Shown here: positions 3,147 to 55,640 of the stretch, piece after piece
Layout: each line of letters starts with the position of its first letter
How positions within the stretch are numbered: the stretch's first letter is position 1
Source: a virus
Virus record (IMG/VR): IMGVR_UViG_3300045988_154277
Length of the DNA: 64,000 nt
Direction: 5' to 3' (one strand)
Translations under genes and position numbers: made by a program
The notes under the pieces: model-generated
Told to the model about the DNA's origin: nothing
The model's database searches: none
What the model saw: the letters and a program-made list of their open reading frames with translations, nothing else

Positions 3147-3172
3147 ATCGATCCTTCTTGTTTAAAACTAGA

Positions 3173-3203: not shown

Positions 3204-3228
3204 TCAAAGTTCATATAAGAGTTACAGC

Positions 3229-3969
3229 TTACTTAGCCGCGTTCTCTTCCGGAGCAGCTTGGTCAGCATTCTTGTCTTTCGACTTGTCGGCACCACCTGC
3301 ACGCTTCGCGGCAGCGATGAACGAGTTGGCAACTCGGATGACGTTTCTGTCGTCCTCGACCGCCTTCTTGATGGCATCACGCAGCTGTTGAATGTATTCA
3401 TCAGTAGCTGCATTCTGCGCTTCTTTGAGCTGATCTTCAAGTTGACTTTTTGTCTTCCCAAGTTCATTGACAGCCTGCTTCAGTTTATTGAGAGCAGCCG
3501 TGAACTTACCTTCATCGGTAATCTTACCATCGATCACAGATCCGCCTTTGATTTCGAACGGACCTTTGAACTTCAGCGAGTTCAGAGCAGAAGCAGTACG
3601 TTCTTTCTGGTTGAAGAGCCATTTGAAGAAATTCGTAACTTTCGCCCAAAGATCCTTCAGGATCTGCTTGATCTTCTGACCGAGACCCTTCTTGGCCTCT
3701 TCGTTCTCAGCTTCCATAGAAGCGGCGCTGCTGAAGTTCTCTCCATAGAGAGCTTCCAGAGAACGAGTCACGCCATATTTCTTGATGCACTTGCTGATGG
3801 CGTTGACGTTGTCATAAGTGCGAACCGTAGCGGTGAGTTCATGACACAGATCCAGGACATCGGAAGCAGCCTGATTGAACTGGATCAGAGAATCCAGGTA
3901 CTCATACGAAAGTTCACCAGAAGCTTTCGGAGCCATGCCCAGATTTTCAAAACCAAGATTGATACCCAT
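3229..3969 (-). CDS. helical protein, paralog family member B (246 aa)
   Basis: MGINLGFENLG... and KKYGVTRSLEALYGEN; paralog of the 2106-3146 product. Confidence 0.6.
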   Translation of the reverse strand: MGINLGFENLGMAPKASGELSYEYLDSLIQFNQAASDVLDLCHELTATVRTYDNVNAISKCIKKYGVTRSLEALYGENFSSAASMEAENEEAKKGLGQKIKQILKDLWAKVTNFFKWLFNQKERTASALNSLKFKGPFEIKGGSVIDGKITDEGKFTAALNKLKQAVNELGKTKSQLEDQLKEAQNAATDEYIQQLRDAIKKAVEDDRNVIRVANSFIAAAKRAGGADKSKDKNADQAAPEENAAK

Positions 3970-4123
3970 GAGTATTCACTCCTGTAAAGATGTTTGTACG
4001 TACATTTGCGAGATGATCATCACACACAAGAAGTCAAATGTAGTCTGAAGAGATAGACATACACGTAACCTCAACACATATGATGTCACCGTGAGACATG
4101 TTACAACTACACACTGTCTTGGT

Positions 4124-5050
4124 TTAGGAGTCCGTATCCATGAGACCGTACGGATCATTCGTCGCCACATCAAGATCTGATGCTGTGGTCGTAATGTCCT
4201 TTTCTGATACATTGCGTGTCTTGAAGTACCGGTAGTCCCACGTTACTTCCTGAAGCTTCTTGTACAGTACATTCAGGATCTTCTTAACACAGTTGTAGTA
4301 CCGTGTATCATCTGTTGTCAGTTCAAACTCTTGCATACACAGCGTGACAAGACGATACGTGTCGTGTTTACAAATGTATGTGTCTCGATTCCACACGGGG
4401 TAGTTTGCATTCAGAAACTCACAACAAGTACAATACTTATCTTCCGTGTAAGTATCCGGATCTTGTAAGTAACGTGTCAATGCTCTGTTGTATAGCGTCT
4501 TATAGAACTTATCGACAACATGGTTGATCGCGGTTGTGTAAAGGGCATGCTCTTTTTGGAACCCTTTATCGGTCGCTTCTTGTTCGTCTTTGAACGTATC
4601 AATGCGAGCATCTGCACAACAACCAAATATCTTCTTGATGATACCAGGTTCTGCGATGTGTTGTGTGCAAAGATCCATCACCCATTCAGGTAGCGGGTGA
4701 AACGCAGGTTGTTGTAGTGACTTTTGATTGGGTTCGTAGAACGATTTGGCGATACTTTCTACGGTGTATGGTATACAGTCGGGGTTGTCGATATGACATG
4801 TTCTAACCCAAGGGTCGCTGTTTTTATGTAGCCGATACATGATCTGGTCAACTACTGCTTCGTAGTTGATTTGCTCCGGTACAGGGATGATCTCTTTGAG
4901 AAACGTTATCAGAGTGTTTCGAAAGTTAGCGTCTACGGACGCTGGTATCTTGACATACCCATAGTTTCTCCAGACACTGTTCGCAAGTGGTTGGATCAAC
5001 CCGTCGATGGTTGCTTGGAATTCTTCTCTTGTTACGATGTTGTTCTCCAT
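4124..5050 (-). CDS. hypothetical protein (308 aa; start moved to MENNIV)
   Basis: ORF 4124-5083. Internal ATG at 5050 has a GAGGAG RBS and removes the overlap with the upstream gene. Confidence 0.5.
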   Translation of the reverse strand: MENNIVTREEFQATIDGLIQPLANSVWRNYGYVKIPASVDANFRNTLITFLKEIIPVPEQINYEAVVDQIMYRLHKNSDPWVRTCHIDNPDCIPYTVESIAKSFYEPNQKSLQQPAFHPLPEWVMDLCTQHIAEPGIIKKIFGCCADARIDTFKDEQEATDKGFQKEHALYTTAINHVVDKFYKTLYNRALTRYLQDPDTYTEDKYCTCCEFLNANYPVWNRDTYICKHDTYRLVTLCMQEFELTTDDTRYYNCVKKILNVLYKKLQEVTWDYRYFKTRNVSEKDITTTASDLDVATNDPYGLMDTDS

Positions 5051-5063
5051 AATGCTCCTCTTG

Positions 5064-5453
5064 TCATCTGTTGAATATCCCAAATCTTCTCTTGATCTTC
5101 ACTTTCACCGTTACCTTGGATAACCCAACCAAGTACATTTTGAAGTAGGGTTCTCCGTAGTTGCAGCAATCTCTGTTATGTTTGTTGATCTCTTCTACTA
5201 CACCAAGTGCAGCTCCCATCTGTTTTAACAGACTGTAATTCACGACACGAAGAGATACGTTCAGACTGTACTCCAACACCTTGTCGTGATACATCTCCTC
5301 CACACATCGACGATATGCATCGTGAACGAGGTCGTAGATACATCTGGTGATCTCATCACTTGGGTTCTTCGCATTCTTGATGCGGATCGACATGTTCTTC
5401 AATTGTTCTTCTTGTTTCTGGTAAACAAGATCGTAAAGTTGTTTGGCATCCAT
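5064..5453 (-). CDS. hypothetical protein (129 aa; start moved to MDAKQ)
   Basis: ORF 5064-5561. The upstream part overlaps a promoter-like AT-rich element (5480-5510), and an AAAGGA RBS precedes the ATG at 5453. Confidence 0.4.
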   Translation of the reverse strand: MDAKQLYDLVYQKQEEQLKNMSIRIKNAKNPSDEITRCIYDLVHDAYRRCVEEMYHDKVLEYSLNVSLRVVNYSLLKQMGAALGVVEEINKHNRDCCNYGEPYFKMYLVGLSKVTVKVKIKRRFGIFNR

Positions 5454-27906: not shown

Positions 27907-30900
27907 ATGCCATTCACATTCGATATGTCACCGAGTGAAGAGCGTCTTCTCTACGACAAGTTCTTCCGGACGAATATGTTCCGTAGGATCAATGATCTTA
28001 CGAGATTGTGGAACCGAGAGGATCTTGTTGAATACCCCGTAGGGAGTATGCTTCACTTGATCGACGATAACTTCTTGATGAACCATCCTGTTGTGTTGGT
28101 TCCCGATACCTCTGGTTGGTCTATGACCAGAAAACCAGACCGTAAGTTCGTGATGCACATCATAGAACCGGTACCTGCAACAGCGATCCCTCTTACAGAA
28201 ACCTTCGCTCTACCTACCTCAGGGGTGTCTGTTACGATCTTGAACTTCAAGAAGCGTAATCAGAACCTGATGCGTCCTGTTGTGAAGATGGAGGATTTTC
28301 CGAGTCCGATGCGTCCTGAAGTACAGAGTATCATCTCGTACAACGCACTTTACCGTGCTCGTATCTTTGGACTGTTGCGAGGATATCGTCGGTTCAATTA
28401 CATCTTCACCAACATCTTCAATACCATCTGCTCGATCGGAACGGGAAGACGACATTTCATCCCGATCCCTGTCGGAGATAAGGTCTTTGATCGAAACAAG
28501 TTCATGACCTCTTTTATCAAACACGATAAAGGTTCTCTGAAACTTGCAGAAGATCCGTGGTATCTGTTCATGGTTCACTTCATGGGGTGGTTGAACACCC
28601 AAAACACACCCTCTCTGTTCGAGAAAGTCCCTGAGAAGTATTGGGAATATATCAACTTCGTTCTGTATACAAGAACCAAAGTTCTTGTTCTCAATATGAA
28701 GCTCTTGAAAGAGTTCAACGAAGGGAACAAGATCCTTTGGCGGGTGATGAATTTGATCAACCTGATGGCTGAGGAAGGTCATCAAGCTGCGATGCAGGAC
28801 TTCGGTGATGTTCCGGTTGCATGTGATACACAAGAAGAACCAGGAGAACTCGCTGTTCAAGCGGATACTCCTTTTACAGAAGAGAAGGAACCGATCCATG
28901 TCACTACTCAAGAGACTGCTTCTGATCGTGACAACCAAGATCAGAGTACTGTTCCACAAGGATCCCCCAGAGAGGAAGATCAGGTAAACGAGGTTACCTT
29001 ACAGCAACCTCCTGCGGAACCTGCCCCCAAACAACAGGAACCCCCGTCTCCTGTGAAGACGATGTTCACTTCTCCTACCAGGAGGAAACCCATCCCGTAT
29101 CTCACCACTCAGCAGAGAGTCAAACGGGAGACTGATGAGTTCGAAAAGTATCTCGATTTCGAACCTCAGACGCTGACGATCGATCCCAAGTGGTTAGAAG
29201 TAGAGATGGTGGAGGGGAAACAGAATGCTCCCGAGTTCAAAGAGAACATGACGGAAGAGGAACAGAAAACCTCCAACCAGAAGTTCTTGAATGAGATTGA
29301 CGAAGGAGCGAAGACTCATATCGAGAATGATCAACATCTCAACAACTATCAAGCAGAGCAAGCGAAGAAACTCGCTGAAGCATACAAGAACATCAAAGTT
29401 GGAGATAAGACGATCGAACAGATCATCCAGGAAGTACCAGATGACACGGTTGCAACCAACACGTTGAATTTCTTGGAGGACGATCCGGATATCGTGGATA
29501 AGTCCATGTTGAAATCTTCCGTTGCTACGTTCGAACACGACTACATGAAGAAACTCTTCCTTCGGGATATGGTGATGAACCTCACCTCATTCAACAAACA
29601 AGGGATGTTCCTGAAGCAAGTGGATGTGGAAGACGTCAGCGATAGTCTGAACCAGCTGATGGAGTACAAAGTCACCTACGAGGATACAAGCAAGAAAACG
29701 CACGTCATCCGATTCAAACTTCCCAAAGTAGATGAGAGAGGATACTGTTATGTGAACGGTACGCTTAGCGTCCTGAAGAAACAGAGAGTCCCTCTTCCGA
29801 TCTGTAAGATCAACCCGACAACTGTTACGTTGACCAGCAACTACAACAAGTATCTGGTGGTGCGGAATGTCACGGTGGCTCACAGTTATATCAACTACAT
29901 CGAGTCGATCCTGAACAAAGGCAATACACCAGAACATCCTGTTGTTGTTCAGCTGAACACCAAGACTTGGAACGATGTGACACTCCCCTACGAGTACACC
30001 TCGTTGGCGAAGAAATACCTCAGCATCAAACTCTCGTTGACAGAGACAGTTGAGTTCTATTTCAACCTGGAAGGAAGACACCAGTGGTTGAGGGATGTTG
30101 GGGGTCTCTTACCAGAGGACTTGGACCTCGTAAAATCGATCGAGAGCGACGCGAAATGCCTTGCTGTAGCGTACGTTGGGAAGCGTCTAATCGGGTTCAT
30201 AGATATCAACAACATATTTACCGTGATCAACTTGGACGACCATACAACCTCTGCTTCTACGACGATCATCGATTTCTTGTGTGAGCAGTTGAATGTAGCT
30301 CCGACTCCGCTGTCAGAGTGGACGGATTTCAAACTGTTGGAGACAACGGTTCCTGTGATCTTCGCTCTCTGTTATCGGTACGGTCTGAGTGAGATGTTGA
30401 ACTACACCAAGACACAGTATCGTATCTTGGAATCAGGAGAACGTTCCTATCGGAACTGGTCTGATGTTGTAATACGGTTCGCAGATAAGACGCTGATCAT
30501 CCCGAGGTCTCCTCTGGTGAACAGCATGCTGTTCGCTGGGTTGAACTTCTTCCAGTTGAACAAGATCAATATGGAAGAGATGGACAGTAAAGATATCTAC
30601 TACGATCTTCTCCAGAGCAAGAAACGTTCTGTTCATTTCCTGAAAGGGATCGATAACTTCTTCGATCTGTTCGTGGATCCGATCTCCAGAGAGGTTCTGG
30701 AACAGATGAAAGAACCAACCAATGCAAGAGATATCCTGATCCGTGCTACTCAGCTTCTGACGACAGAAGATCACAAACCTCAGGCTTCCAGCACCAACTT
30801 CCGATTCCGTTCTTATGAACAGATCAATAGTGCGATATACAAAGTACTGAGTCGATCCTTCGCCAACTACAGAAGCAAGAGTGTAGGCGCTACTCACAAG

Positions 30901-31269
30901 TGGAGTATCGCAGATTACGAAGTGCAGCAGATGGTTATGCAGGATCAGTTAAAAGAGAATGTCGACATCATCAACCCCATCAACGACATCAAGTATCAGG
31001 AGGAGTTCTCCCATGCTGGATTCGCTGGTGGACGGAAGAGTCTGCAGAGTTTTACAGTCCCAGATCGTCAGTATCCGAAAGATGCTGTCGGTATCATCTC
31101 AGAGGCTACCGTCGATAGTGCGAAGACTGCATTCGCAGCGTCCACTTCGATGGATCCGACGATCGTCAATATGCGTGGGATGACACTCACCTCTAACCCA
31201 GATGAGTTGAAACCTACTCAGATCTTGTCGATCAGTTCTTTGATCATGCCTGGAGTGACGCAAGATGAT
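27907..31269 (+). CDS. multisubunit RNA polymerase beta-like subunit, exon 1 (about 1121 codons)
   Basis: GAAGGAGG RBS. NTPEHPVVVQLN resembles beta ETPEGPNIGLIN, and the C-terminal SLIMPGVTQDD resembles beta SLIPFLEHDD. The ORF is closed by a TAA that lies at the 5' edge of group I intron A. Confidence 0.6.
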
Positions 31270-31681
31270 TAACATTATAACAGTCCGGTATACCCGAAGA
31301 GGGTGTGCTTGTTACCATTCCTAATACTAGGAAGTTCTTAAGGTTCTACATACTACAACGTAGCTCAAAAGGCAAGCGTGATAGTCGCGAAAGCAGAAAG
31401 AAATGTAGAAATGACCTATGCTGAAATAAAAGCCTGTTACAAGGTGCTAAGGGTTGCTAACAAGGAATTACTAGTAGCGAAGTCTTGTCTATAAGACAGG
31501 ATGTGCTCAACGACTAGGGGGTTAATCGCCCCGTACCCGCCAAGTGGCGCTGGGAAACGGAATGGACCCTAACAGATTAAGCTGAGGGTTTGACATAGTC
31601 TCTACATCTACGGAAAGCGTAGAGCAGAACTTAATGTTCGGGTGATGAGTAACGATCATCACTGAAGATAAAGAGCAAGCG
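31270..31681 (+). ncRNA. group I intron A (ORF-less); core to about 31622 plus a possible 3' extension
   Basis: P7 halves GACTAG (31512-31517) and TAGTC (31596-31600). Q/R region GGATGTGCTCAACGACTAGG parallels Tetrahymena GGAUGCAGUUCACAGACUAA. P9 hairpin CTACG gaaag CGTAG (31608-31622). Extra hairpin GTGATGA gtaacga TCATCAC (31642-31662). Confidence 0.65.
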
Positions 31682-31690
31682 TCAAAATTT

Positions 31691-32047
31691 AAACATTACT
31701 GAACCGTATACTGGAAACAGTGTGCGTGCATAGACCCTTTAATTGTCTGGGAGTTCCTAAAGCCTGTTGGACCACAACGTGACTTGTAAAAGTGAGCGTG
31801 ATGGTGACGAAAGTAGAAAGAATCAACAGGATGTCTCATGCTGCAATAAAAGTCTACTTCTAGTAGATGCTAAAAGACAGTAACAATGGATAATCAGCAG
31901 CCGAGATCCTTCACGGAGGATCAGGTTCATCGACTAGACCTGAGAAGGTCGTACCCCTCAAGTGAGGCTGCGGAAATAAGGGTCCGCTAAACGTATCGTA
32001 AGATACGCATGTGTGAGATATAGTCAGTACATCATGCGAAACGCATG
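31691..32047 (+). ncRNA. group I intron B (ORF-less), homologous to intron A along its whole length
   Basis: R: TTCATCGACTAGACC (31932-31937 is GACTAG). S: GAGATATAGTCAG (32021-32025 is TAGTC), nearly identical to Tetrahymena AAGAUAUAGUCGG. P9: CATGCG aaa CGCATG (32033-32047). Aligns with intron A from AACATTA onward. Confidence 0.65.
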
Positions 32048-33241
32048 AGCTGGGTAACCATTCCCGGGACGGAAGTAACGACTCCGTCTGAACACAAAAG
32101 CGTAAGTATCCACCTCTCTCACTACCTTCCCACTGAGAAGTGTGAAGTGTCTCGTCTTCGTACAGGTTACGAGAAGATCGTAGCCCATCGTTGTAATCCT
32201 CCCTTCGCTTATGCTGCAGAAGCAGATGGTGTGATCGAAGCTATCGATCAGGAAGCGAAGATCCTTCGTGTGAAGTACAAAGATAAAACCGTTGCCGTAT
32301 CGTTCGGTGATGATTACACTAAGAACGGCGGTGGTGGATTCTACTGTACTCAGAACATCGTAATCAACGGATACGAAGAAGGAGATAAGGTCAAGCGTGG
32401 AGATATTATCATCTACAACGACCGGTTCTTCACTCCTGATCCGTACAGCAAACAAGTCAATTGGAACATCGGTGTGTTGAAAGACGTCGTTCTTATCGAC
32501 GGTGACAGTACACTGGATGACAGTTGCATCATGGATCATGATCTTGCTAAGGATCTTGCATTCAACCCTGTCCATATCCGTGACATCGTGGTCACCAAGA
32601 AGACTACGATCCACAAATATGCATCCATAGGAACAGAGGTCAAATCGATCGATCCTCTGATGATCTTCGACCAGTCGGAACTGAATGAAGATATGTTCGG
32701 TGGACTGGATGAAGATGCGATCCGTCTGTTGGGTAAGATCAACAAGAGAACTCCGAAAGCCAAGTTCACTGGTAAAGTAGTCGCACTGGATGCGTTCTAC
32801 ATCGGAGGGATCCAAGACATGGCTCCTGGTGTTCGTGGGTTGGTCAGTCTGATCAACAAGATGAAATATCAGAAACACCAAGCTGCGAAAGGAACTGTCA
32901 ACCAGGACAACTACCCTGTTTCTCAGAACATCACTCAGTCCAACCGGATCGGTATGACCGAACTGGATGAAGAGACGGTGATCTTCCGGTTCTATATCCA
33001 GCAGGATATGAAGATGAACGGTGGAGACAAAGTGGAGTTCGATAGTTCCTTGAAATCCGTCTGCACAGGTATCTCGAACAACTCCTGGGTGAGTGAAGAT
33101 GGTTCGTTGGTAGGACATGCTCTGTTCTCCACGATCGGTATCGACAACCGTATCATCAACTCTCCTAAGATCGAAGGGATGTGCAACAAGATCTTGGAGA
33201 CTGCGGAACAACAGATCCTCAAGATGTATTTCGAAGAGTGA
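32048..33241 (+). CDS. multisubunit RNA polymerase beta-like subunit, 3' exon (about 398 codons; exact 3' splice site uncertain by a few nt)
   Basis: Matches to E. coli beta: [32 protein letters not shown] versus [58 protein letters not shown] versus [43 protein letters not shown]...NKILET versus GDKMAGRHGNKGVISKI...GQILET. The ATG at 32045 used by the ORF track lies inside intron P9. Confidence 0.6.
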   Translation, partial: [397 protein letters not shown]

Positions 33242-39437: not shown

Positions 39438-41069
39438 TTGGAGTCGAATGAGTCCAACATATCAGCGTTGTACGTCCCATCCTTCATCACAGATGAGGAT
39501 GGGGTACAGTATCCTGTGAAATCTGTTGGTTTGAAAGCGTTCGCGGGTAATCCGAACCTTGTCAAAATCTATTTTGGAGAAGGTATCGAAGAGCTTCGTG
39601 AACAAGTATGTTACCACTGCTCTAACTTGGAGTCGGTATCACTTCCGTCTACACTACGTTATATGTGGAATGCGTTTCAAGAGTGTGGGAAGATAACTAC
39701 GTTGGAGTTACCAGCTAATCTGGAATACCTCGGATCAAGTTGGATATATTCGATGGTAGGACTTACTGGGGTGATCAACATCCCAGCTAAGGTAACTGAG
39801 ATCAATATAACAGCCATCTCGTCAGAGCATATAACCGGGTTTAATGTAGCAGCTGCTAATCCCAACTACAAATCCGTCGATGGGTGCTTGTTCACCAAAG
39901 ATGGAACAACGTTGTGTTTAGTACCGTCATCCGCTGATTGGGTGACTGAATATGTTACACCAGATGGTGTAACAACGATTTGGACAAGTGCATTTTCTAC
40001 CAACCGCAGTCTTGTCACATTGACACTTAGCGAAGGGGTTGTATCTGCACCAAGCGCAATCGGTAGCTGCACAAAGTTGATACAGTTGAATCTACCGTCT
40101 ACTCTAACAACCAACCCATTCCAATCCCTCGCCAATATGTACAGCTTATCTGCGATTACCGTATCGGAGAATAGTCAGACATTTGCGGCGGTGGATGGAG
40201 TGATGTTCACCAAAGATCTGAATACATTGATCAAGTATCCTCCTAAGAAAGAAGCAGCATATATCGTACCTTCTACTACCAAAATACTTGGTAGTGGTGC
40301 GTTCTCTTTAGGTAGGATGCAGTCTCTCACCTTGAATGAAGGATTACTTGCTATTTATTCAGATGCATTACGGTCTGTGATCAAAGTTCCAAGTGATAGT
40401 ACACTGAATGTGTTGCGTATTCCGAACACGGTCAACTCTATCGCCAACAACGGATTGTTTGAAGCGTTCTGGTCTGGCTTTGAAGTAGACAACACACATC
40501 CTTATTATTCCACGGATGGTTCTGTTCTTTATAACAAAAATAAGACTGCAGCTCTTGTGTATACCTGTGATACCTCCGCTCCTCACGATCGAGAAGTAAC
40601 ACTTCCATCTACCGTTGAGGAGATCGGTTTAGGTTTCTCACATAACAACAGTCCACTTGTGAAGTTAGATCTGAGTCGAACCAAAGTAACGGTTCTTCCG
40701 CAGTTCACTTGGTTCTCAACAGCGAACGACGGTAATGAACGAACTCTTTTGCTTCCAAACACGTTAACAAGGATCAATTATAACAGCATCCGAATCGTAA
40801 GTGCAAGAACTCTCACGATACCGGCTGGTGTAACTACCATTGAATCTGCTGCGATAGGGTTGGATAATGCAGAGGAGATCGTGTTCGAAGATCCAGGGCA
40901 AGCTGGATCTGATGGAGTTAAGGTGTTCAACCTGACAACCTTCAACAGCATCTTCTGGACTATATCTCCAAGGTGTGTTGTTCGTGGGTATAAAGGATCT
41001 GAAGACAACTTGTCTCCAGCTGAACAAATCGCCAAGCAGTATACATTGCTGTTTGAACCACTCGGTTAA
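39438..41069 (+). CDS. BspA-type leucine-rich-repeat surface-protein-like domain protein (543 aa), probable fibre/adhesin component
   Basis: Repeats of the form xxSVxxIGxxAFxxCxxLxxIxLPxxL throughout. No ATG: the track uses TTG at 39438, and the frame is open upstream back to 39315. Confidence 0.5.
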   Translation: MESNESNISALYVPSFITDEDGVQYPVKSVGLKAFAGNPNLVKIYFGEGIEELREQVCYHCSNLESVSLPSTLRYMWNAFQECGKITTLELPANLEYLGSSWIYSMVGLTGVINIPAKVTEINITAISSEHITGFNVAAANPNYKSVDGCLFTKDGTTLCLVPSSADWVTEYVTPDGVTTIWTSAFSTNRSLVTLTLSEGVVSAPSAIGSCTKLIQLNLPSTLTTNPFQSLANMYSLSAITVSENSQTFAAVDGVMFTKDLNTLIKYPPKKEAAYIVPSTTKILGSGAFSLGRMQSLTLNEGLLAIYSDALRSVIKVPSDSTLNVLRIPNTVNSIANNGLFEAFWSGFEVDNTHPYYSTDGSVLYNKNKTAALVYTCDTSAPHDREVTLPSTVEEIGLGFSHNNSPLVKLDLSRTKVTVLPQFTWFSTANDGNERTLLLPNTLTRINYNSIRIVSARTLTIPAGVTTIESAAIGLDNAEEIVFEDPGQAGSDGVKVFNLTTFNSIFWTISPRCVVRGYKGSEDNLSPAEQIAKQYTLLFEPLG

Positions 41070-42884: not shown

Positions 42885-44537
42885 CTAGTGTATCGTAGAC
42901 CAGACTTTGCCGATCGCACCGATGTGATTGTGCTCCACAGCCATCTGACGGGTTGTGGTCGTACCGTAGATGTCGAAACTGACACCCATGTATTTCACAA
43001 TGTTGATCATATCGGTAACCAACGCTTTATCGATCTCCTGATCCTCGGTCAGGTACGAAGTGATATCAGCCAATACCGTGTCGATATCATCCACCATCTT
43101 GACAAGGCTATTCGTCGCTGCCAGATATTTCTCCATATCCAGAAGAGAGAGTCTGACATCTTTAAACTCCTTCATCGTCTTGTAAACGGACATGAACTTC
43201 ACATCCATCGGAGTTTTTTGTTCTGTGAAGACTTTATCCACAGAGCCTTTCAGAGAGTTCAAACTGGTCTCTCTCTGTTTGACAAGGTTCACCATGGGAA
43301 CCAGAGTGCTCTTATAATCTTCACTCCGCATCAACTTCCTTCTGAAATCGATCAGAGCAGCCAGAACACCCTGTCCATACGCCTGGATATCCAGCACTGT
43401 ATAGACTTGTTCCAGACTCATACAAGCGTTCTGGTAGGTACCTTTCATACCGCTTGGGATGGGGATATCTAGGTTCGTTACCTGAGTGATCGGAATGCTC
43501 TCGGCTTTCAGACACATCGTCGTATGCGATTCGTAGTAATACCGCATCTCAGAACGCTTCAGGTCTTTGTAGAATTTGAAGATATTGGTCTTGAATGTAT
43601 TGCCGATCTTGAGGAACACATCGGTCACACCGATGAAGATCTTCAGAAGACCGGTTCCGATCCCTTCGGTAGATGTGGTATCCAGAGTACGGAGGTAATT
43701 GTGATAGACTTCCAGCTTACGAAGGTCCTGATAAAGAGCATCACTGTTCCAAGGAATGAACGGATACTTGGATGCACAGACACGGAGGATCTCTTCTGAT
43801 TTCTCGGACTTATCATCCTTGTCATCTTCTTCATCTTCAGGATCCTCTTCCTCAGAGTCATCTTTATCTTTGTCTTTCTTGGACTTAGACTTCTTGTCTG
43901 ACTTATCATCTTCGTCGTCAGACTCTTCATCATCGTCCTCTTTGTCCTCATCGGAATCTGTATCATCATCTTCGTCAGAATCATCCTTATCATCAGAATC
44001 ATCATCATCGTCTTCTGACTCATCCTCCGGGTCAGGCTCTTCGTCTTCTTCATCCTCAGAGTCCTCATCCTTCTTGGATTTGGCGTTGCGGTAGATATAT
44101 CGTTCTTCAGACTTCTCTTCTTCGTCTTCCGGCTCATCGTCAGAAGTGTCTTCACCACCAACAAGATCCCATACTTTATCGACGAACGCTTTGATTTCAC
44201 GACCATCCTTCTTGATCCAGTCGTATTCAACATCGATCTTGATATCAGTATCGTACTTGTCTTTCAGTTCCTTCTCGATCTTCTTGAGAACATCAGACCA
44301 GTCGTCTTTTGTAAGGCTTTCCAGAGTGGAGAAATTGTGTTCTTCCTTTACAAAATCAGGACCATCGGAATAGTCGTTCAATAGTTTACAGATCATCCGA
44401 GAGATGACGTAACGGTTGAGCTCTTTGTCATCCTCTTCCTTCTCATCGGAACTCTCTTTCTCATTCCGAAGGTGCGTTGGTCGGATCGGTCGAAGACCTT
44501 CCGTCCCTAACGCAGACAAGCTAAACTTGGAAATCAT
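42885..44537 (-). CDS. protein with an approximately 130-aa Asp/Glu-rich low-complexity region (550 aa)
   Basis: DSEDEEDEEPDPEDESEDDDDDSDDKDDSDEDDDTDSDEDKEDDDEESDDEDDK... Confidence 0.55.
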   Translation of the reverse strand: MISKFSLSALGTEGLRPIRPTHLRNEKESSDEKEEDDKELNRYVISRMICKLLNDYSDGPDFVKEEHNFSTLESLTKDDWSDVLKKIEKELKDKYDTDIKIDVEYDWIKKDGREIKAFVDKVWDLVGGEDTSDDEPEDEEEKSEERYIYRNAKSKKDEDSEDEEDEEPDPEDESEDDDDDSDDKDDSDEDDDTDSDEDKEDDDEESDDEDDKSDKKSKSKKDKDKDDSEEEDPEDEEDDKDDKSEKSEEILRVCASKYPFIPWNSDALYQDLRKLEVYHNYLRTLDTTSTEGIGTGLLKIFIGVTDVFLKIGNTFKTNIFKFYKDLKRSEMRYYYESHTTMCLKAESIPITQVTNLDIPIPSGMKGTYQNACMSLEQVYTVLDIQAYGQGVLAALIDFRRKLMRSEDYKSTLVPMVNLVKQRETSLNSLKGSVDKVFTEQKTPMDVKFMSVYKTMKEFKDVRLSLLDMEKYLAATNSLVKMVDDIDTVLADITSYLTEDQEIDKALVTDMINIVKYMGVSFDIYGTTTTRQMAVEHNHIGAIGKVWSTIH

Positions 44538-46374: not shown

Positions 46375-48147
46375 ATGCAATCTTTTATCAAGTTCATCGC
46401 GGATGTCACCATCCCTTATAATCCGGACTGGTTGGCAGATCCGGACAAGATGTTCCGTTCGCTTAGCACAGAAGGTAAAGTATACTTCCTGATGCAACAA
46501 GCGATCGCCCTCAACTACCTTGAGCGAGTATACGATAAGGGTCTTCCGACACTTATTAAAGAGTATAAAGAGAAGGTCACCAAATGGTGGCTGGTTGACC
46601 TCGAATATGAGGTCAATGCTCTTGAGACAGACGATCCTTCTCTGGAGAAGGAAGGGTATCTCAATATCCTGGCTCTTCTCGATGATGACCGTAGCAACCA
46701 GATCGATGCGGAACGCTGTTCCGATTGGGCATCTCATCAACGAGAAGATGCTCCTGTTGCTATGAAAAATACATTCTATAGTCCATACTTGCGTTTCGCT
46801 GAACGAGCCCGCAGGTCGGAGACGTTGGCAGACGGTGAACATGCCCAGAGCACAGAGTCATTCAGTGTCCCTGGTCCAGTCACTCTTCCGACGTTCACCT
46901 ACCAGGGAGCGATCCTCAGCGTGCGTCACGATTTGAGTTATTCCGGTTATAAGTACGATTACACATCCAATCACAAATACGGGACATCCCAGTATGGATT
47001 GGGTGTTGGGTCCATCTTCTCCTACTGGAGAGGATATAACTGGACTGACTTCAAATTTAATAGTGTGGTGGGAGTGCTCGCTGCACAGTGTTTGGATTTG
47101 GATACAAACACCTTCCCAAACAACTCGCTCCTTTGGGCTTACTACTTCGTTTACTGCAAAGTGACCGGATGGCAACCGAAAGGTGCAAGTGAATCGAATT
47201 ACATTTGGCTCTCGTCTGAATCGAACTTTCTCAGACGCTGTGTGCTCAGCTTCTTGATCGATCTTCGTGATCGATACAAGGTCCAGTTTGACGATAGTGA
47301 GCTTCTGGCTCGCTTGATGCAAGGGGATACGGCTGAGGATGCAGATCAACTACACGCATTTCTGAAGGCATCCGAGCCGACAGAAGTAAGTGTCGAGATG
47401 TATCACGCTTTTCAGAAGAGTCCCTTCGCTCGTTTCGACGAGCTCGACTTGATCAAACATAAGAGGTTGTCTAGTCGTGAGTTGATGGATGCTACCATCG
47501 ATGCGAGGAACTCGGAAACGGACCCATCCGACACCCAGCAGGATGATGATTCAACATCGGGTAGATCCCGTCGTCGCAGAACCAGTAGACCCTCCAGTGA
47601 ACCGAATCTGTCGGACAGCAGCTTCGATCAACTGGATGAAGAGACTGGGATGACGGAAGATCCGGCACAGCCTGATGGTGAAGACGAAGAAGCTGCGGCC
47701 ACTGAAGATCCCAACACTGATGAGTTGTCGGACAACAACTTCGATGAGTTGGATCAGAACATGGACCCGGAAGCTGACGCTACTACTCCTGACGAAGAGC
47801 CGACCGACCCTGAAGGGAACCCTGAGGGCACAGAAGATACAACACACAACACACAACACACACAAGTACCTGATATGCCCGATATGGATGACAAGAAGGG
47901 CGTGAAGCTCGAACTGAGTGCGGGTGAGACCGCAAATTCGGTTCTTTACAGGATAGAGTTGGAGTCGTTCATTGATTCACTCCTAGCGAACTCTCCCAAT
48001 TTCTTGTCAGCACAGAAGGTTGAGCTGTTGAAACGTGTCAAAGCGTACTGGCTCAATCGTCTTTCACCTGAAAGCTTGGTGAACTTGCTGAACTCCATCA
48101 TCAAGTTACCCAAGTATCTTAACATCAACAAGAATAAGGACAAATAA
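46375..48147 (+). CDS. hypothetical protein immediately upstream of the capsid-candidate gene (590 aa; acidic, probably disordered C-terminal half)
   Basis: ORF track starts at 46342; ATG at 46375 has a GAGGT RBS. Contains an AACACAC x3 heptamer repeat at 47841-47861. Confidence 0.5.
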   Translation: MQSFIKFIADVTIPYNPDWLADPDKMFRSLSTEGKVYFLMQQAIALNYLERVYDKGLPTLIKEYKEKVTKWWLVDLEYEVNALETDDPSLEKEGYLNILALLDDDRSNQIDAERCSDWASHQREDAPVAMKNTFYSPYLRFAERARRSETLADGEHAQSTESFSVPGPVTLPTFTYQGAILSVRHDLSYSGYKYDYTSNHKYGTSQYGLGVGSIFSYWRGYNWTDFKFNSVVGVLAAQCLDLDTNTFPNNSLLWAYYFVYCKVTGWQPKGASESNYIWLSSESNFLRRCVLSFLIDLRDRYKVQFDDSELLARLMQGDTAEDADQLHAFLKASEPTEVSVEMYHAFQKSPFARFDELDLIKHKRLSSRELMDATIDARNSETDPSDTQQDDDSTSGRSRRRRTSRPSSEPNLSDSSFDQLDEETGMTEDPAQPDGEDEEAAATEDPNTDELSDNNFDELDQNMDPEADATTPDEEPTDPEGNPEGTEDTTHNTQHTQVPDMPDMDDKKGVKLELSAGETANSVLYRIELESFIDSLLANSPNFLSAQKVELLKRVKAYWLNRLSPESLVNLLNSIIKLPKYLNINKNKDK

Positions 48148-48149
48148 CA

Positions 48150-50387
48150 ATGTCTGCTATTGACAAATACCTGAAGCAGCTTGAAACTGCGTTCGCCAAT
48201 ACTGGCAAAGCTGGTGATCTGGTTGGTATCGGTCGCTCGACGTACGACGCTGTTGGGAAATACCTTACCACCCGCAACATGATCAAGCGTGGCGCCTATG
48301 AACAGATGTCCATCAGCAACGAATCCATGAGCTTCGAAACTGCGATGAACGCGCAGGGCGTCGATGGTCTGAAAGACCTCGTTGAGAGTTGCGGCGTTCC
48401 GCAGGCTTACGTCAAGGACTGCTGCAAGACCATCCTGAACATCATGAACCGTTGCTCGCAGGGTGCGGCCGCTGCTTGGCAGCAGCAGAACCTCCGTGCG
48501 GATCACACGGCCAACGGTCAGGCGGAAGCTCGTCCGCTCTCCTCGATCTACAGCTCCGACGTTGCTGGCATTCTGAACAGCACCGCTGTGGCCGGTCAGG
48601 AAGCGTTCGGTACCAACGTCGATATGGCGGTTCCGGATATGAAGGTTGCCATCACGGTTGCCATCATGGACTTCCATGTCCGTCTGATCCCCCGCGTTAT
48701 GCCGACCCGTTCCACGACTCAGCCGAACGTCTCCTACACCAAGGAGTGGCTGGAAGTTTACGATCTCACCGGCAACACCAAAGACAGCCAGCGTCTCGTT
48801 GACCTGTACGCCGATCCGTCCTTCGCTCGCAATGAGCTGAAACTGATCGAAGTCAACCCGGCCAACGATCCGGAACAGAAGTTCATCAACGGTGATGGTA
48901 CGCTCAAGTTCGGCCCGAAGGCCAACATCCTCGAGCTCTCCACCCGTGAGGACAAATACGGTTACAGCCATATCAACCGCACCGACCTGATCGCGGACAA
49001 CGTCCAGATCAAGTTCGTTCGTGTCGCTCTGACCTTCAACGGTGGCGAAGCGGAATACTTCGACTGCGAAGTTCCGATCAGCAAGAACCGTCTGACCCGT
49101 ATGGTCAACGCCAACGACTCTGCGATGCGCAATGCAGACATCAAGTTCCGTACCTACCTCCGCAAGAGTGCGATGATGGCGAACGGCTCTGCGTCCGGCA
49201 TCCTCTCGAACCTGAGCGACAGCGAAGCGTTCGTCCTTGACTTCAACGTCAAGCCGAGCATCTCTCTGAAGTGGGGTATCGCGGACTGTCTTGCGGACGT
49301 CAGCGTCAGCGTTCGTCACGATATCGACAACGCTCAACTCAGCGGATTCGCGACCTCTCTGATGAGCAGCGGCGCTCTGAGCCTGATCGGTTATGAACTC
49401 GACGCTCGTTTCTCGGAAGAGAACCTGCGCAAGACCTCCATCGCGGTTATGACCCACCGTGTTCCGTTCTCGTTCGATATCCCGATCGGTCGGAACTATG
49501 TGTTCGATTACGCGATCGGTCAGGTCAATGCGGAAGAGAACGCCACCAACCTCACCAAGGTCATCGGTCTCGGTCAGGACAAGGTTGCGCTCGAACTCGG
49601 CATCCGTACCATCGAAGATGTCTACGATCGCATCCGTGCGGTCAGCCCGAACCCGGTCGATCGTCCCGAATATGTCGGCACCAACTATGTTGCTGGCGAC
49701 AAGGTTCGCCCGTCCATCTTCATCGGCGATCTGGATCTGACCAATCTGGAAACCATCCGTGATGCTGACCGTGCTGGCGACATCAAGCAGAAGGCCATCT
49801 CCATGCTGACCGCTGCTACCAGCCGTATCCTTCAGGAGTCCTTCCTGCAGCAGCAGCTCGGTGGTTCGACCACGGCTACCTTCAAGGGTATCACCAGCAT
49901 CGAGATCCTCGGCAACGTCATCGGTATGCCGCACATCCACGACCATATGTCCAAGGATGATGGTCGCAACGTCGGTGACGGTGTGGAATACGTTCTCGTT
50001 CTGCCGAACGGCGTGAAGATCGAGTTCGTGACCTCCACCTTCGACAGCATGCGCGACAAGATCGTCATGTGGCCGACCATCCCGAACAACACCGAAAGTG
50101 AACTGCACTTCGCTCACAACTGGGACTATGGGTGCATGGTTGCCCATTACACCCCGAGTGGTGAAGCGGCTCACCATCGTCTGTTCGGCAACATCCGTGA
50201 ACTGCCGATCGTCGTCAACCCGCTGGGTCTCATCATCCAGGTCAAGGGTATCGAGCTGGCGAACGGTATCGCTCTCGATGGCGTCGTCCGTCCGACCTTC
50301 AACGTCAACGTGGAAGGCTCGGTTGTCACGACTGTCAACGGAACGATCACCACGGCTCCGGAACAGGGTGGCACTGAAGAGCCCTGA
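48150..50387 (+). CDS. highly expressed, codon-recoded 745-aa protein; candidate major capsid protein (alternative: another very abundant structural or shell protein)
   Basis: AAGGA RBS. G+C and codon choice visibly differ from neighbours (CTG, CGT, CCG, GGT, AAC, TTC, ATC, ACC dominate). Size is typical of jumbo-phage major capsid proteins. A full-length antisense ORF (828 aa) is a GC3 shadow. Confidence 0.45.
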   Translation: MSAIDKYLKQLETAFANTGKAGDLVGIGRSTYDAVGKYLTTRNMIKRGAYEQMSISNESMSFETAMNAQGVDGLKDLVESCGVPQAYVKDCCKTILNIMNRCSQGAAAAWQQQNLRADHTANGQAEARPLSSIYSSDVAGILNSTAVAGQEAFGTNVDMAVPDMKVAITVAIMDFHVRLIPRVMPTRSTTQPNVSYTKEWLEVYDLTGNTKDSQRLVDLYADPSFARNELKLIEVNPANDPEQKFINGDGTLKFGPKANILELSTREDKYGYSHINRTDLIADNVQIKFVRVALTFNGGEAEYFDCEVPISKNRLTRMVNANDSAMRNADIKFRTYLRKSAMMANGSASGILSNLSDSEAFVLDFNVKPSISLKWGIADCLADVSVSVRHDIDNAQLSGFATSLMSSGALSLIGYELDARFSEENLRKTSIAVMTHRVPFSFDIPIGRNYVFDYAIGQVNAEENATNLTKVIGLGQDKVALELGIRTIEDVYDRIRAVSPNPVDRPEYVGTNYVAGDKVRPSIFIGDLDLTNLETIRDADRAGDIKQKAISMLTAATSRILQESFLQQQLGGSTTATFKGITSIEILGNVIGMPHIHDHMSKDDGRNVGDGVEYVLVLPNGVKIEFVTSTFDSMRDKIVMWPTIPNNTESELHFAHNWDYGCMVAHYTPSGEAAHHRLFGNIRELPIVVNPLGLIIQVKGIELANGIALDGVVRPTFNVNVEGSVVTTVNGTITTAPEQGGTEEP

Positions 50388-50430
50388 TCTTGGCATAACC
50401 AAGACACTCGTATAACGAGTTAGTATAGGC

Positions 50431-50464
50431 ATCAGGTGTAGTAGGACAACCTACTACACCTGAT
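50431..50464. terminator. 15-bp stem hairpin after the recoded gene
   Basis: ATCAGGTGTAGTAGG acaa CCTACTACACCTGAT; preceded by a small ACTCG tataa CGAGT hairpin. Confidence 0.55.
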
Positions 50465-50477
50465 CCTAGCTATTTGA

Positions 50478-50807
50478 TTAGTTGTATTGTTTTGTAACTT
50501 CGTGGTATTGCAGTTCCATCGAACCTGCATGATGTTGTTGGTAAAGAAGTTGAGCACGATGTATTGTACCACAACAAGTAACTTCCCAATAAGATCGATA
50601 TACATCCATGAGATCAGCGTTTTCATCCATTTCAGCACGCTTCAATTCAACAGAACATTTGGCACATCGGACATTACACACTGCGAATTGATTTTTGGCG
50701 TAAGGGCACAACAACCCAACTCGATCATCTCCTGGTAACTTCTGTACATAGATGTTACCTTTTATATCGATATCGATCCTTTCCGACAACATATCGTATT
50801 TGATCAT
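50478..50807 (-). CDS. Cys-rich zinc-ribbon-like small protein (109 aa)
   Basis: CPYAKNQFAVCNVRCAKC...CCG cysteine pattern. Confidence 0.4.
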   Translation of the reverse strand: MIKYDMLSERIDIDIKGNIYVQKLPGDDRVGLLCPYAKNQFAVCNVRCAKCSVELKRAEMDENADLMDVYRSYWEVTCCGTIHRAQLLYQQHHAGSMELQYHEVTKQYN

Positions 50808-50888
50808 AAAAACCTCCTGTTATAGCAAGCGAAAAAGAAAAGGAGAAGGACGAAATATCCTTCTCCTGTACAGTGGTGCAGGGACCTC

Positions 50889-52703
50889 TTATTTTGAGGT
50901 CTCTACGCTCACACGGTTGGTTGGAACTTGGATCGTTTTTAGGTCCAGATTCAGGTGATGTTGTTCTGCGAACAGACTGAGCATTTCGTCATATCCAGGG
51001 ATGTTGAAATGCTGCTCACAAAGCTTGACTGCATTCTCTACAACGGCTGGATATCTGGAGAAGAACTCGAAGATATACTCAGCGTTCTGTTTGACGATCT
51101 TGTCTGCATACTTCTTCTCTGCTTTGGTCTTCTCTTTCGGTGGGAGAAGATCGATCTCTTCTCTCATCCTTTGTAGTTCCTCGATCGAATATGGACAACC
51201 TGTGATCCAGAGTACCGTAGCCTCTTTTGTCTCACGGGAGATGTTCATCGCGATCGTGATACTGGGATAGAACGAAGTTACATCCAAGTCACAACAGAGT
51301 CGATAGATGCCGGTTGGATCGTCAGACTCCTGCATACAACGACTACCCTTGTATCGCATCAGAGATGGACTGAGTACAGTACCGCCGACGTTGCTGATTA
51401 GTTTATCATAACTCTTCGCCATGGAACCAGATACGGTTCCAGGCACAGCTCCTTTAGATAGGCAATACTCGTAGAACTGTGCTTTTAACTGTACTGTCTG
51501 ATGAGCGAAGTCGTCCAACAGGGATGGTCCTGTCAACATGATCATCGAGGATATGTCGGTTGTGACATGATCTAGGATGTTGGGTTGCAGAACGTCGAAG
51601 CAGTTATATACAGCGTAGCCTACTTTGTCCTTGGTCTGCATCAGGTAGTGAGTTTGATTTGATCCGAACTTCATCTTACCAGCACCCAGGTTCTTCCCAC
51701 AAATATAATCCAATGTGTACATGACCTCACGTCCTTTTACCTTACGGAGTCGTCCATACAGACACATGGGATCCACCCAGTAACTATATCCAGGACATTT
51801 CAAGATATGCCACTTGTCTGCCAGATGTTCCACCTTCCGTTTGTCCTCTTCGAATTTAAACATTCGAAACTCAGGAGGAACATCAGGGTGTGCGAAGAGT
51901 TCAACTGGATCCAACCCACGGAACAGAGCACGTCTTGGGATCCAATCCAATTCGTAAGCATCGTTCCAAGCCAACAAGAAATCTGGTTTACACAGGATCG
52001 CTGTTCTTACGGATTGCTCGATCAACTCTTTCTCATTGGAGCACATGATGAACTTCGGTGTCCACTCTTCTGGGATGAACACTTTTTTGGCTTTGTCATT
52101 GAGCTGACTGTAGATGTTGTTCAACTCAAGATTCCACCGATCCATCAACTCCTGTCTCCAGTTCTCAGATGGTTGGAACCATTCTTGCAAGATCCAACAG
52201 TAGATCGTCCGGGTTTTCCAATCACAGTAACCGTTCAGGATGATCTGCTCATCTCCGAGAACGGAGGTTTCAATATCCATCACTCCGATGTCATAGGTTG
52301 TGATACCCTTCTTCGAAGCTTCGATATACTCCAACTTCATTTGGATCTCAGGATCGATATCTGCTCCATACACATAAGGACTCTCTAAGAGCTTCCGTGT
52401 GTTGATGTAGCCATATGTAGGGTAACCTAACGCTTTCGCTAAGGTCTCTCCCATCTTCTTATACTGACAGATATAGACATCCAGTTCTGACAGTTTTGCA
52501 CTCTCTCGTTTGTTCTCGTAGTTGCGAAGTCCTTTTCTCGCAACCCACACTCGTACCATAGGGTTCCTTACGATGTGTAGTTTGGACTCCAAGGTATCGA
52601 CATCTTTCACCATAGCCACGATCCCATCCATACCGGAAGGATTGTTGGATGGAGGGATATAACAACTGTGGATGAAGTTACAATTCGGTATCGGGTTATA
52701 CAT
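50889..52703 (-). CDS. family B (T4 gp43-like) DNA polymerase, N-terminal part only: exonuclease domain plus palm motif A
   Basis: Exo I YDIGVMDIETS. Motif A DLDVTSFYPSITIAMNISRET versus RB69/T4 DLTSLYPSIIRQVNISPET. ORF ends about 139 aa after motif A with no KxxxNSxYG or YGDTDS. Confidence 0.7.
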   Translation of the reverse strand: MYNPIPNCNFIHSCYIPPSNNPSGMDGIVAMVKDVDTLESKLHIVRNPMVRVWVARKGLRNYENKRESAKLSELDVYICQYKKMGETLAKALGYPTYGYINTRKLLESPYVYGADIDPEIQMKLEYIEASKKGITTYDIGVMDIETSVLGDEQIILNGYCDWKTRTIYCWILQEWFQPSENWRQELMDRWNLELNNIYSQLNDKAKKVFIPEEWTPKFIMCSNEKELIEQSVRTAILCKPDFLLAWNDAYELDWIPRRALFRGLDPVELFAHPDVPPEFRMFKFEEDKRKVEHLADKWHILKCPGYSYWVDPMCLYGRLRKVKGREVMYTLDYICGKNLGAGKMKFGSNQTHYLMQTKDKVGYAVYNCFDVLQPNILDHVTTDISSMIMLTGPSLLDDFAHQTVQLKAQFYEYCLSKGAVPGTVSGSMAKSYDKLISNVGGTVLSPSLMRYKGSRCMQESDDPTGIYRLCCDLDVTSFYPSITIAMNISRETKEATVLWITGCPYSIEELQRMREEIDLLPPKEKTKAEKKYADKIVKQNAEYIFEFFSRYPAVVENAVKLCEQHFNIPGYDEMLSLFAEQHHLNLDLKTIQVPTNRVSVETSK

Positions 52704-52750: not shown

Positions 52751-52795
52751 TTAGTAATATATACGTAAGATAGGGCTGACCCTATCTTACGTATA
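52751..52795 (-). promoter_or_regulatory. promoter-like motif copy (TTAGTAATATATACGTAAGA) fused to a 16-bp stem hairpin
   Basis: Motif family; TATACGTAAGATAGGG ctga CCCTATCTTACGTATA; upstream of the polymerase gene. Confidence 0.4.
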
Positions 52796-54686: not shown

Positions 54687-54707
54687 TAGTGTTATATATA
54701 CGTAAAT
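54687..54707 (-). promoter_or_regulatory. promoter-like motif copy (TAGTGTTATATATACGTAAAT)
   Basis: Motif family, variant TATATATAAC; upstream of the 157-aa gene. Confidence 0.35.
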
Positions 54708-55618: not shown

Positions 55619-55640
55619 CTAAGTAATATATACGTGAAAA
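55619..55640. promoter_or_regulatory. promoter-like motif copy (CTAAGTAATATATACGTGAAAA)
   Basis: Identical core to the copy at 2036. Here it lies 65 nt upstream of a plus-strand gene, so its orientation is ambiguous. Confidence 0.35.

Follow-up and report, generated by a model that had tools for sequence, protein, structure and literature searches.

The stretch of DNA analysed here (the window, 64,000 nucleotides) carries on its minus strand an open reading frame at 50889..52703 that starts with ATG and encodes a protein of 604 amino acids. An AAGGA ribosome-binding site lies 7 nt 5' of the ATG, and a promoter-like motif, CGTATATATTAC, preceded by a hairpin, is located 51 nt 5' of the same codon (52754..52765, minus strand). 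Where chance would give 0.13 copies of this motif in the window, there are 4, each lying on the minus strand and upstream of a minus-strand ORF; it may serve as a promoter. The stop codon is followed after 22 nt by a terminator-like hairpin with an 11-bp stem and then TTTTCTTTTT (50841..50867, minus strand). Next come a small Cys-rich ORF of 109 aa (50478..50807, minus strand), which has a separate AGGAGG ribosome-binding site and is conserved in relatives, and the convergent gene of a major capsid protein of the phiKZ type, 745 aa long (48150..50387, plus strand; Pfam PF25620, PhiKZ_MCP, E 8e-15). The initial annotation described the latter as a convergent recoded gene. Its orientation is as described, but no sign of recoding was seen: the gene has no in-frame stops and is distinguished only by its higher GC content (55% versus about 46%), and its antisense frame is open. 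The Cys-rich ORF, described from the outset as unrelated, gave no match in Pfam or PHROG and shares 36% identity (E 7e-13) with the ORF at the same position in a 69%-identical relative; it is not polymerase sequence.

The window belongs to a phiKZ-related jumbo phage with a genome of about 279 kb, which stems from a human-gut metagenome and represents an uncultured, divergent clade. Besides the capsid gene, its phiKZ-like genes encode multisubunit RNA polymerase beta pieces (phrog_3148), a DnaB-like helicase (phrog_3213), SbcC and RuvC, and the flanks of the window hold further RNA polymerase subunits, topoisomerase II and terminase. A group I intron-like RNA interrupts the RNA polymerase beta gene within the window. 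A Pfam search for chimallin and other markers among the unannotated window ORFs gave nothing useful.

The 604-aa protein comprises an N-terminal domain, a 3'-5' exonuclease domain, a first palm segment that carries motif A and, at the C-terminus, a helical tail, all features below being on the minus strand. Exo I and a T4/RB69-like motif A had been spotted at the start, and both align in register with T4 gp43. Exo I (MDIETS, residues 142-147, 52263..52280) aligns to its T4 counterpart, with D143 present in 42 of the 43 aligned homologues and E145 in all of them. Exo II reads WNDAYELDW (51942..51968; WNiegFDvpYI in T4), its residues being N247, Y250 and E251. N247 is found in 43/43 homologues, and position 251, Asp in 35, is Glu in 8 that all belong to the subclade of this protein. 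Exo III (YAVYNCFD, 51594..51617), aligned to YisYNiiD of T4, has an invariant Y366 and D370 (43/43). Motif A and the next conserved stretch, DLDVTSFYPSITIAMNISRET (residues 472-492, 51228..51290), align to T4 FDLTSLYPSIIRQVNISPETI; D472 and D474 are present in every aligned homologue (43/43), Y479 and P480 in 40 of the 43, and the catalytic Asp is assigned to Asp474. The tail (residues 507-581, 50961..51185) consists in the predicted structure of helices at 507-518, 522-566 and 571-581 (pLDDT about 65-89) and ends in a conserved element, ENAVxLCxxxFNLPxYxEML, that is kept even in 26%-identical cultured homologues; the tail is a candidate docking surface for a partner chain. Judged on sequence, the motifs of this ORF are far beyond chance.

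The relationship to T4 gp43 is visible only by profile comparison, with 21% identity across the columns aligned. When 39 homologues are combined in a profile, residues 120-494 align to gp43 85-430 (97.7% probability, E 2.5e-12, hhalign), with Exo I, II, III and motif A all in register. When the 604-aa protein itself was the query, a PDB sequence search and a Pfam hmmscan returned no match; PF03104 is precomputed on many of its homologues. Foldseek with the predicted structure found RB69 gp43 as the best match (E 1.3e-13). Taken together, hhalign, Foldseek and the homologues identify the protein as a family-B DNA polymerase of the PF03104 exonuclease/N-terminal region. Closer at hand are phrog_3011, 'DNA polymerase' (E 4.3e-90, residues 36-504), and gp44 of Salmonella phage SPN3US (28% identity, E 1e-38), of which the protein is, by sequence comparison, an orthologue; SPN3US gp18 shows no similarity to it. 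Identity to every cultured homologue is about 26-28%, and tblastn with this N-terminal half (N-half) matches 308 jumbo-phage records.

The ORF truly ends between motif A and motif B, as had been proposed. It contains neither KxxxNSxYG nor YGDTDS, also as described, and the distance of about 139 residues initially given between motif A and the end is slightly off, to no consequence: the end lies 112 residues past the end of DLDVTSFYPSITIAMNISRET, or 132 past D472. This end is natural and no error, because relatives keep the stop, the terminator-like hairpin and the order of the genes, and the lengths of homologues agree. Stop and terminator are identical in a 97%-identical relative, and the gene order is shared with the 69%-identical one. 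The stop falls 8-159 residues past motif A in 43/43 aligned homologues, all devoid of motifs B and C, and 74 of 76 homologues measure 402-630 aa. The other two, of 923 and 931 aa, have their extra sequence on the N-terminal side and not on the C-terminal. HNH-like ORFs are fused upstream of the N-half in some relatives.

A frameshift, mis-assembly or premature stop in a once full-length polymerase gene has nothing specific in its favour beyond the shortness of the gene compared with T4 gp43, and it is exceedingly improbable. Dozens of independent assemblies share this end point, and an independent ENA scaffold (ERZ28568400 BRIT16-1_SAMN02333979_METAG-scaffold_10) has a sequence identical to that of the window. 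Neither DNA alignment with two relatives nor a six-frame HMM search revealed a frameshift at the gene end or polymerase-like sequence downstream in any frame, where the conserved small ORF and the capsid gene follow directly. There is likewise hardly any chance that an intron, intein or homing endonuclease interrupts the gene, with a second exon or extein nearby, as in phages 25 and 44RR or in MIJ3. The intron-like RNA of the RNA polymerase beta gene and the HNH-like ORFs of relatives would fit such an event, but Rfam has no match in 50300-51000, neither intein blocks nor an endonuclease ORF is present past the gene, and the C-terminus is the conserved helical tail. Moreover, no coding sequence for a C-terminal half (C-half) lies within about 95 kb downstream (lower coordinates) or about 94 kb upstream (higher coordinates).

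In phiKZ-like phages the exonuclease and the polymerase reside on two chains (Kazlauskas & Venclovas 2011, PMC3201878). For SPN3US, gp18 and gp44 were described as a split-subunit DNA polymerase (Thomas et al. 2016/2017, PMC5105663, PMC5694885), in a statement that, as worded there, cites Cornelissen 2012. A split family-B polymerase (PolB) of this kind has been published as the standard arrangement in all phiKZ-related jumbo phages (PMC3201878, PMC5105663, PMC5694885, PMC7824862), and non-adjacent halves are therefore the rule in this group and no oddity. The likeness to the split gp43 genes of T4-like phages drawn in the initial annotation thus stands as far as a two-piece PolB is concerned; the distance between the halves, presented there as the unusual point, is ordinary for phiKZ-related phages.

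The family of the C-half (SPN3US gp18, phrog_2927, Pfam PF20286 and PF00136) is large, with more than 1632 clusters when grouped at 90% identity and, at 50%, 887 representatives. The best 150 of these 887 (E<=1e-30) are 704-782 aa long apart from one of 967 aa, and none is fused; wherever sampled, the C-half stands as a protein of its own. Its profile aligns to residues 453-582 of T4 gp43, motif B included, in a weak match (E 0.0015, 16.7% probability), and RB69 gp43 is the best structural match for the predicted structures of both halves. By profile and fold comparison the two are complementary, the N-half corresponding to about 85-430 of T4/RB69 gp43 and the C-half family to the fingers domain onward. 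They also co-occur: the 308 records with an N-half compare with 302 phage records for the C-half, with the same spread of hosts and genera, and in seven cultured genomes the two genes are 28-52 kb apart.

As first noted, the two halves are not adjacent in this window, and no motif B or C sequence of a polymerase occurs anywhere in its 64,000 nt by regex or C-half HMM. The few DTDS/NSxYG regex matches in six frames are all in non-polymerase ORFs, one of them tail-fibre-like and the other a poly-acidic ORF of 550 aa (42885-44537). A six-frame search of the window with the C-half profile HMM gave nothing at E<1, and PHROG scans of 35 large window ORFs revealed no second polymerase piece. Beyond the window, where the remaining half had been expected, the HMM was equally negative in the 9 kb past each end (on the identical ENA scaffold) and in collinear 97-98% contigs, namely IMG/VR 3300045988_142450 (positions 1-135,684) and 10 kb more on UONW01000014, so that about 146 of the about 279 kb were covered. 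These contigs were followed first to the left, along the synteny with SPN3US, and later to the right, where the closeness of terminase and C-half genes in cultured phages pointed. In most cultured relatives checked the C-half gene is 14-29 kb from the terminase gene, which is not so here. In an alignment-based IMG/VR scan for the C-half, the best 80 of at least 600 matches did not include the target contigs. Searches of protein collections with a 14-sequence alignment, the family consensus and exhaustive representatives returned C-halves whose top listed entries were not linkable to this genome, the word-index search being driven by the alignment's first sequence. No repeated motif of at least 14 nt was able to sample the whole genome in one scan. 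Since about 146 of about 279 kb contained no C-half, we infer its presence in this genome from the family. The initial proposal of an N-terminal PolB piece, with fingers, palm and thumb on a separate non-adjacent gene, is supported on these terms.

The negative search, together with the lack of any other DNA polymerase family among the large ORFs scanned, also speaks for a clade that has no gp18-type C-half, the ORF being an orphan exonuclease or the subunit of an unrecognised partner while another polymerase replicates the genome. We consider this very unlikely. The search covered little more than half of the genome, the halves co-occur in essentially all cultured relatives, and a motif A so strictly conserved points to a polymerase partner that works. 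A related scenario, that the human-gut clade lacks a gp18-type C-half and that the protein acts alone or its motif A works with a partner module so far unrecognised, has a slim chance of being correct. In a milder version, the partner may be encoded more than 90 kb away and the active site may be built in trans with the motif A of the 'exonuclease' chain.

Very probably, the 604-aa protein is the N-terminal subunit of a two-chain PolB that joins a gp18-type partner encoded elsewhere, with a proposed assembly after translation and a putative composite active site. The partner would be the product of a separate gene of the SPN3US gp18 family, of about 700-750 aa, elsewhere in the about 279-kb genome, and from it would come the fingers (with KIxNNxxSG, similar to motif B), a long insert of helices, the hairpin of motif C (SDTDS) and the thumb. 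Once translated, the chains would associate into the active polymerase, perhaps with the help of the conserved helices at the C-terminus of the N-half. In the stand-alone model of the N-half, residues 439-490, the motif A region, have pLDDT <50. The combination of a motif A that is invariant in the N-half and predicted to be disordered alone suggests a composite site, in which the motif A strand would complete the palm sheet of the C-half, the N-half contributing motif A and the C-half motif C. Synthesis and proofreading would then be united in one heterodimer.

This arrangement is contradicted by the assignment of Kazlauskas & Venclovas (2011, PMC3201878), who located the two catalytic aspartates (D229 and D398 of EL) in the polymerase chain. 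Accounts of the partner as a polymerase that lacks only the exonuclease domain (PMC3201878; Iyer et al. 2021, PMC7824862) agree with a stand-alone proofreading exonuclease, a catalytically self-sufficient polymerase chain and a motif A-like stretch that is a relic, as does the predicted lack of a confident fold for the motif A region in isolation. Several observations make this unlikely. D472, D474 and the YPS that follows are invariant or nearly so across sequences of 26-97% identity, which is unexpected for a relic, and the profile alignment puts motif A in register with T4 D408. On the partner side, 13 of 136 C-halves, that of SPN3US among them, have Asn in the column of EL D229, and a self-sufficient C-half would have its motifs in the non-canonical order B, A, C. 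In the C-half model, only helices lie between the fingers and the motif C hairpin, and the C-half therefore appears to have no motif A strand.

Known systems put the two-chain PolB of this phage in perspective. The closest are the phiKZ-type split enzymes (SPN3US gp44/gp18; OBP, EL, phiKZ and 201phi2-1), which belong to the same family, phrog_3011, and share its domain content and end point past motif A, its genome type (phiKZ-type capsid protein, multisubunit RNA polymerases, divergent DnaB) and the non-adjacent partner gene. The 604-aa protein differs from their cultured members in its low identity to them and its origin in an uncultured human-gut clade, in an extra insert of about 40 residues past motif A, in having Glu instead of Asp in Exo II, and in a partner that would be farther off than the 28-52 kb of cultured relatives. 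The T4-related Aeromonas phages 25 and 44RR likewise have a PolB made of two reassembling polypeptides (43A/43B), and the halves of phage 25 gp43 co-purify and are active (Petrov et al. 2010, as summarised in PMC2988022), which makes a two-chain PolB experimentally plausible. Their cistrons, according to the same summary, are adjacent, with an untranslated spacer or a seg endonuclease gene between them, and the enzyme is a close relative of T4 gp43. In contrast, the gene studied here is followed by a terminator, the Cys-rich ORF and the convergent capsid gene, with no C-half within tens of kb, and its product falls in the divergent PhiKZ PolB cluster and is no close relative of T4 gp43. Jumbo phage MIJ3 and PA5oct-like phages also have their PolB in pieces, encoded by ORFs that lie side by side, have split-intein blocks and enclose an HNH gene (PMC6892783), none of which is found here. 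T4/RB69 gp43 itself, which shares Exo I-III and motif A in register, is one chain of 898-903 aa with a sequence identity of only 11-21%; relative to it, the phiKZ-type C-half has about 200 additional residues, a helical insert, ahead of motif C.

The 604-aa protein is thus a divergent addition to an already published kind of split polymerase. For such ORFs of gut jumbo phages the fitting name is 'DNA polymerase, N-terminal (exonuclease and motif A) subunit', and they should not be flagged as truncated genes or pseudogenes. The point of wider interest concerns the whole family, beyond this window: the evidence suggests that the catalytic Asp of motif A is on the chain usually called the exonuclease. 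If true, the phiKZ-type replicase depends on its two chains for synthesis and proofreading alike, which would bear on how replisomes are built in phages without a recognisable sliding clamp or primase.

The 604-aa product of the minus-strand ORF at 50889..52703, which opens with ATG, is the exonuclease and motif A piece of a family-B DNA polymerase (PolB) and is referred to here as the N-half. It falls in the PHROGs family phrog_3011, 'DNA polymerase' (E 4.3e-90), and matches gp44 (594 aa) of Salmonella phage SPN3US at 28% identity (E 1e-38). Alignment to SPN3US gp18, a member of the separately encoded fingers, palm and thumb family (the C-half), gave no similarity; gp44 and gp18 are assigned to phrog_3011 and phrog_2927, both labelled DNA polymerase. 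Iyer et al. 2021 (PMC7824862) count a divergent PolB without a fused exonuclease among the traits that define group 1 jumbo phages. The initial annotation had proposed a split family-B polymerase, and this is correct given the phrog_3011 and gp44 matches and the literature on the arrangement. That arrangement has already been described and is not new, and the N-half is a divergent human-gut representative of the known phiKZ-type split polymerase. Its peculiarities are modest: an insert of ~40 residues after motif A, a partner gene that would be unusually distant, and the acidic residue of Exo II (51942-51968, minus strand; residue 251), which is Glu in the N-half and its 7 closest aligned relatives and Asp in the remaining 35 aligned family members.

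The genomic setting is that of a phiKZ-related phage. The window encodes a PhiKZ_MCP capsid protein, pieces of a multisubunit RNA polymerase beta subunit (phrog_3148), a jumbo-phage-type DnaB-like helicase (phrog_3213), UvsX-like, RuvC-like and SbcC-like proteins, and a 2670-aa tail-fibre-like protein. It is identical to ENA scaffold BRIT16-1_SAMN02333979_METAG-scaffold_10 (278,450 bp; 0 mismatches over a 22.5 kb overlap), and near-identical contigs occur in IMG/VR and in a deposited 'human gut metagenome' assembly (UONW01000014, 279,059 bp). No close cultured phage was found, the best tblastn identities being 25-28%. A 543-aa ORF (39438-41069, plus strand) carries BspA-type leucine-rich repeats (PF13306, E 9.5e-32), which are common in gut anaerobes; their presence fits a human-gut origin and may hint at host range.

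Several other loci deserve mention. A 772-nt gap without ORFs separates two RNA polymerase beta-like ORFs, 27907-31272 (phrog_3148 positions 2-1050) and 32045-33241 (positions 1045-1421), and matches the Rfam group I intron RF00028 twice on the plus strand, at 31266-31624 (full model, 43.1 bits against a gathering threshold of 50, E 2e-9) and more weakly at 31700-32048 (21.7 bits, E 0.005). One or two introns that lack an endonuclease probably interrupt this beta-subunit gene, as opposed to a true split. In UONW01000014, the 98% relative, an HNH endonuclease gene (phrog_59) adjoins a transposase gene (phrog_506, E 1.8e-81) at 2936-5296 of locus L110, and the pair is flanked by genes for an RNA polymerase subunit and the topoisomerase II large subunit. 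A tRNA-Thr(TGT) gene (940-1014 of locus L106) lies ~25 kb right of the terminase gene. The contig IMGVR_UViG_3300045988_163688 (361,040 bp) is a perfect hairpin, with the same locus at 38,568-60,076 (reversed; L102) and 300,965-322,473 (L103) and paired coordinates summing to 361,041; this is an assembly artefact, and the unique sequence amounts to ~180 kb.

Within the N-half, MDIETS occupies residues 142-147 and DLDVTSFYPSITIAMNISRET residues 472-492, with the stop codon 112 residues beyond. A six-frame regex scan of the 64-kb window located motif A in the N-half only and returned no credible match to KxxxNSxYG or YGDTDS. An AAGGA ribosome-binding site precedes the start codon, and a terminator-like hairpin with an 11-bp stem and a T-run (50867-50841, minus strand) lies 22 nt past the stop. 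Further upstream is a copy of CGTATATATTAC (52754-52765), itself preceded by a hairpin; three other copies lie at 2040-2051, 54691-54702 and 55623-55634, all four on the minus strand and upstream of minus-strand ORFs, and one with 1 mismatch, compared with 0.13 expected. The contained TATATTAC resembles the phiKZ early-promoter consensus, and CGTATATATTAC is a candidate phage promoter. Downstream, a 109-aa Cys-rich ORF (50478..50807, minus strand) has its own AGGAGG ribosome-binding site and no Pfam or PHROG family. Its position and sequence are kept in the 69% relative (36% identity, E 7e-13), with the shared motifs CP...C.V.CAKCSV, and its product may be a zinc-binding protein whose gene is co-transcribed with, or follows, the polymerase gene. 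The convergent capsid gene (48150-50387, plus strand) has a GC content of 55% against ~46% in its surroundings and a fully open antisense frame of 828 codons (47946-50432, minus strand), which looks like the strong codon bias of a highly expressed gene; it had been described as recoded, of which we saw no sign.

The N-half stop is a natural gene end and not damage. A frameshift or intein at the break had been raised as something to check, and the result is negative: an Rfam search of 50300-51000 gave no match, and the 97% relative is identical at the stop codon, the terminator hairpin and the ribosome-binding site of the following gene. Gene order is retained in the 69% relative (RuvC, a 156-aa ORF, the N-half, the small Cys-rich ORF, the convergent capsid gene), and a C-half HMM had no match in any frame of the window and the relatives' flanks. 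In a large protein collection, 74 of 76 homologues measure 402-630 aa, and the two longer ones (923 and 931 aa) have an N-terminal Cys-rich HNH-like extension of ~330 aa and lack C-terminal polymerase sequence. In P0012 and P0013 (relatives at 62% and 58% identity) such an HNH-like endonuclease sequence is fused in frame to the N-half, which may come from read-through of a homing endonuclease gene into the polymerase or from a fusion made in gene calling. All sequences in a 43-sequence alignment end 8-159 residues past motif A, and the C-terminal element ENAVxLCxxxFNLPxYxEML is kept even in 26%-identical cultured homologues.

Profiles and models place the break between motif A and the fingers. 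A 39-sequence N-half profile aligns residues 120-494 with T4 gp43 85-430 (97.7% probability, E 2.5e-12), with Exo I (DIE), Exo II (WNxxxFD), Exo III (YxxxD) and motif A (FDLTSLYPSIIRQVNISPET) in register, and the N-half AlphaFold model (mean pLDDT 83, confident over residues 1-435) has RB69 gp43 chains as its top structural matches (E ~1e-13, ~455 aligned columns). The C-half family, aligned from 14 cultured phages, contains a motif B-like KIxNNxxSG, an invariant SDTDS and MKNEY...KHY. Its profile aligns weakly (residues 99-182 with T4 453-582, spanning motif B; E 0.0015). The position of the break agrees with the initial annotation. The model of the BONAISHI C-half (pLDDT 87) shows two long finger helices, a ~200-residue all-helical insert, and then the motif C hairpin and thumb; its best structural match is RB69 gp43.

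The two halves travel together. Among cultured phages the N-half occurs in 308 records and the C-half in 302, the genus and host distribution being the same for both, and in seven genomes with comparable coordinates the genes are convergent and 28-52 kb apart. An exhaustive search found 887 C-half representatives at E<=1e-30, and the stand-alone form is general since the best 150 of them are 704-782 aa long, with one of 967 aa. In the window's phage, the HMM found no C-half in ~146 kb of the ~279-kb genome, comprising the window and 9 kb beyond each end on the identical ENA scaffold, positions 1-135,684 of the 97% IMG/VR contig and a further 10 kb of the 98% gut contig. Large flanking ORFs encode topoisomerase II subunits, RNA polymerase subunits, a helicase, terminase, structural proteins, an HNH endonuclease and a transposase. 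Most of the cultured relatives checked have their C-half gene 14-29 kb away from terminase, and none was found at that spacing here. We nonetheless consider it very probable that this genome encodes one.

A two-chain polymerase has an experimentally validated analogue in Aeromonas phage 25, whose 43A and 43B halves co-purify and are active (PMC2988022), but there the cistrons are adjacent and the enzyme is a close T4 relative. In the N-half family, D472 and D474 are invariant (43/43) and Y479 and P480 are found in 40/43. Residues 439-490 form the only internal region with pLDDT <50, as would be expected for a strand needing a partner sheet, and the C-half model has no strand from the fingers to motif C. 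For the polymerase chain of phage EL, Kazlauskas & Venclovas (2011) marked D229 as the first of the catalytic residues. In a 136-sequence alignment this column lies in a helical region and is Asn in 13 C-halves, including that of SPN3US, and another aspartate (EL-like D291, in a GDLYHL stretch; locus L016) is more conserved (126/136). Because motif A is invariant in its aspartates and poorly ordered in the isolated chain model, the C-half model is strandless from the fingers to motif C, and the D229 column admits Asn, we infer that the polymerase active site is probably composite, with motif A supplied by the 'exonuclease' chain. This indication of motif A on the exonuclease chain is family-wide, and it is the sole point here that merits specialist attention.
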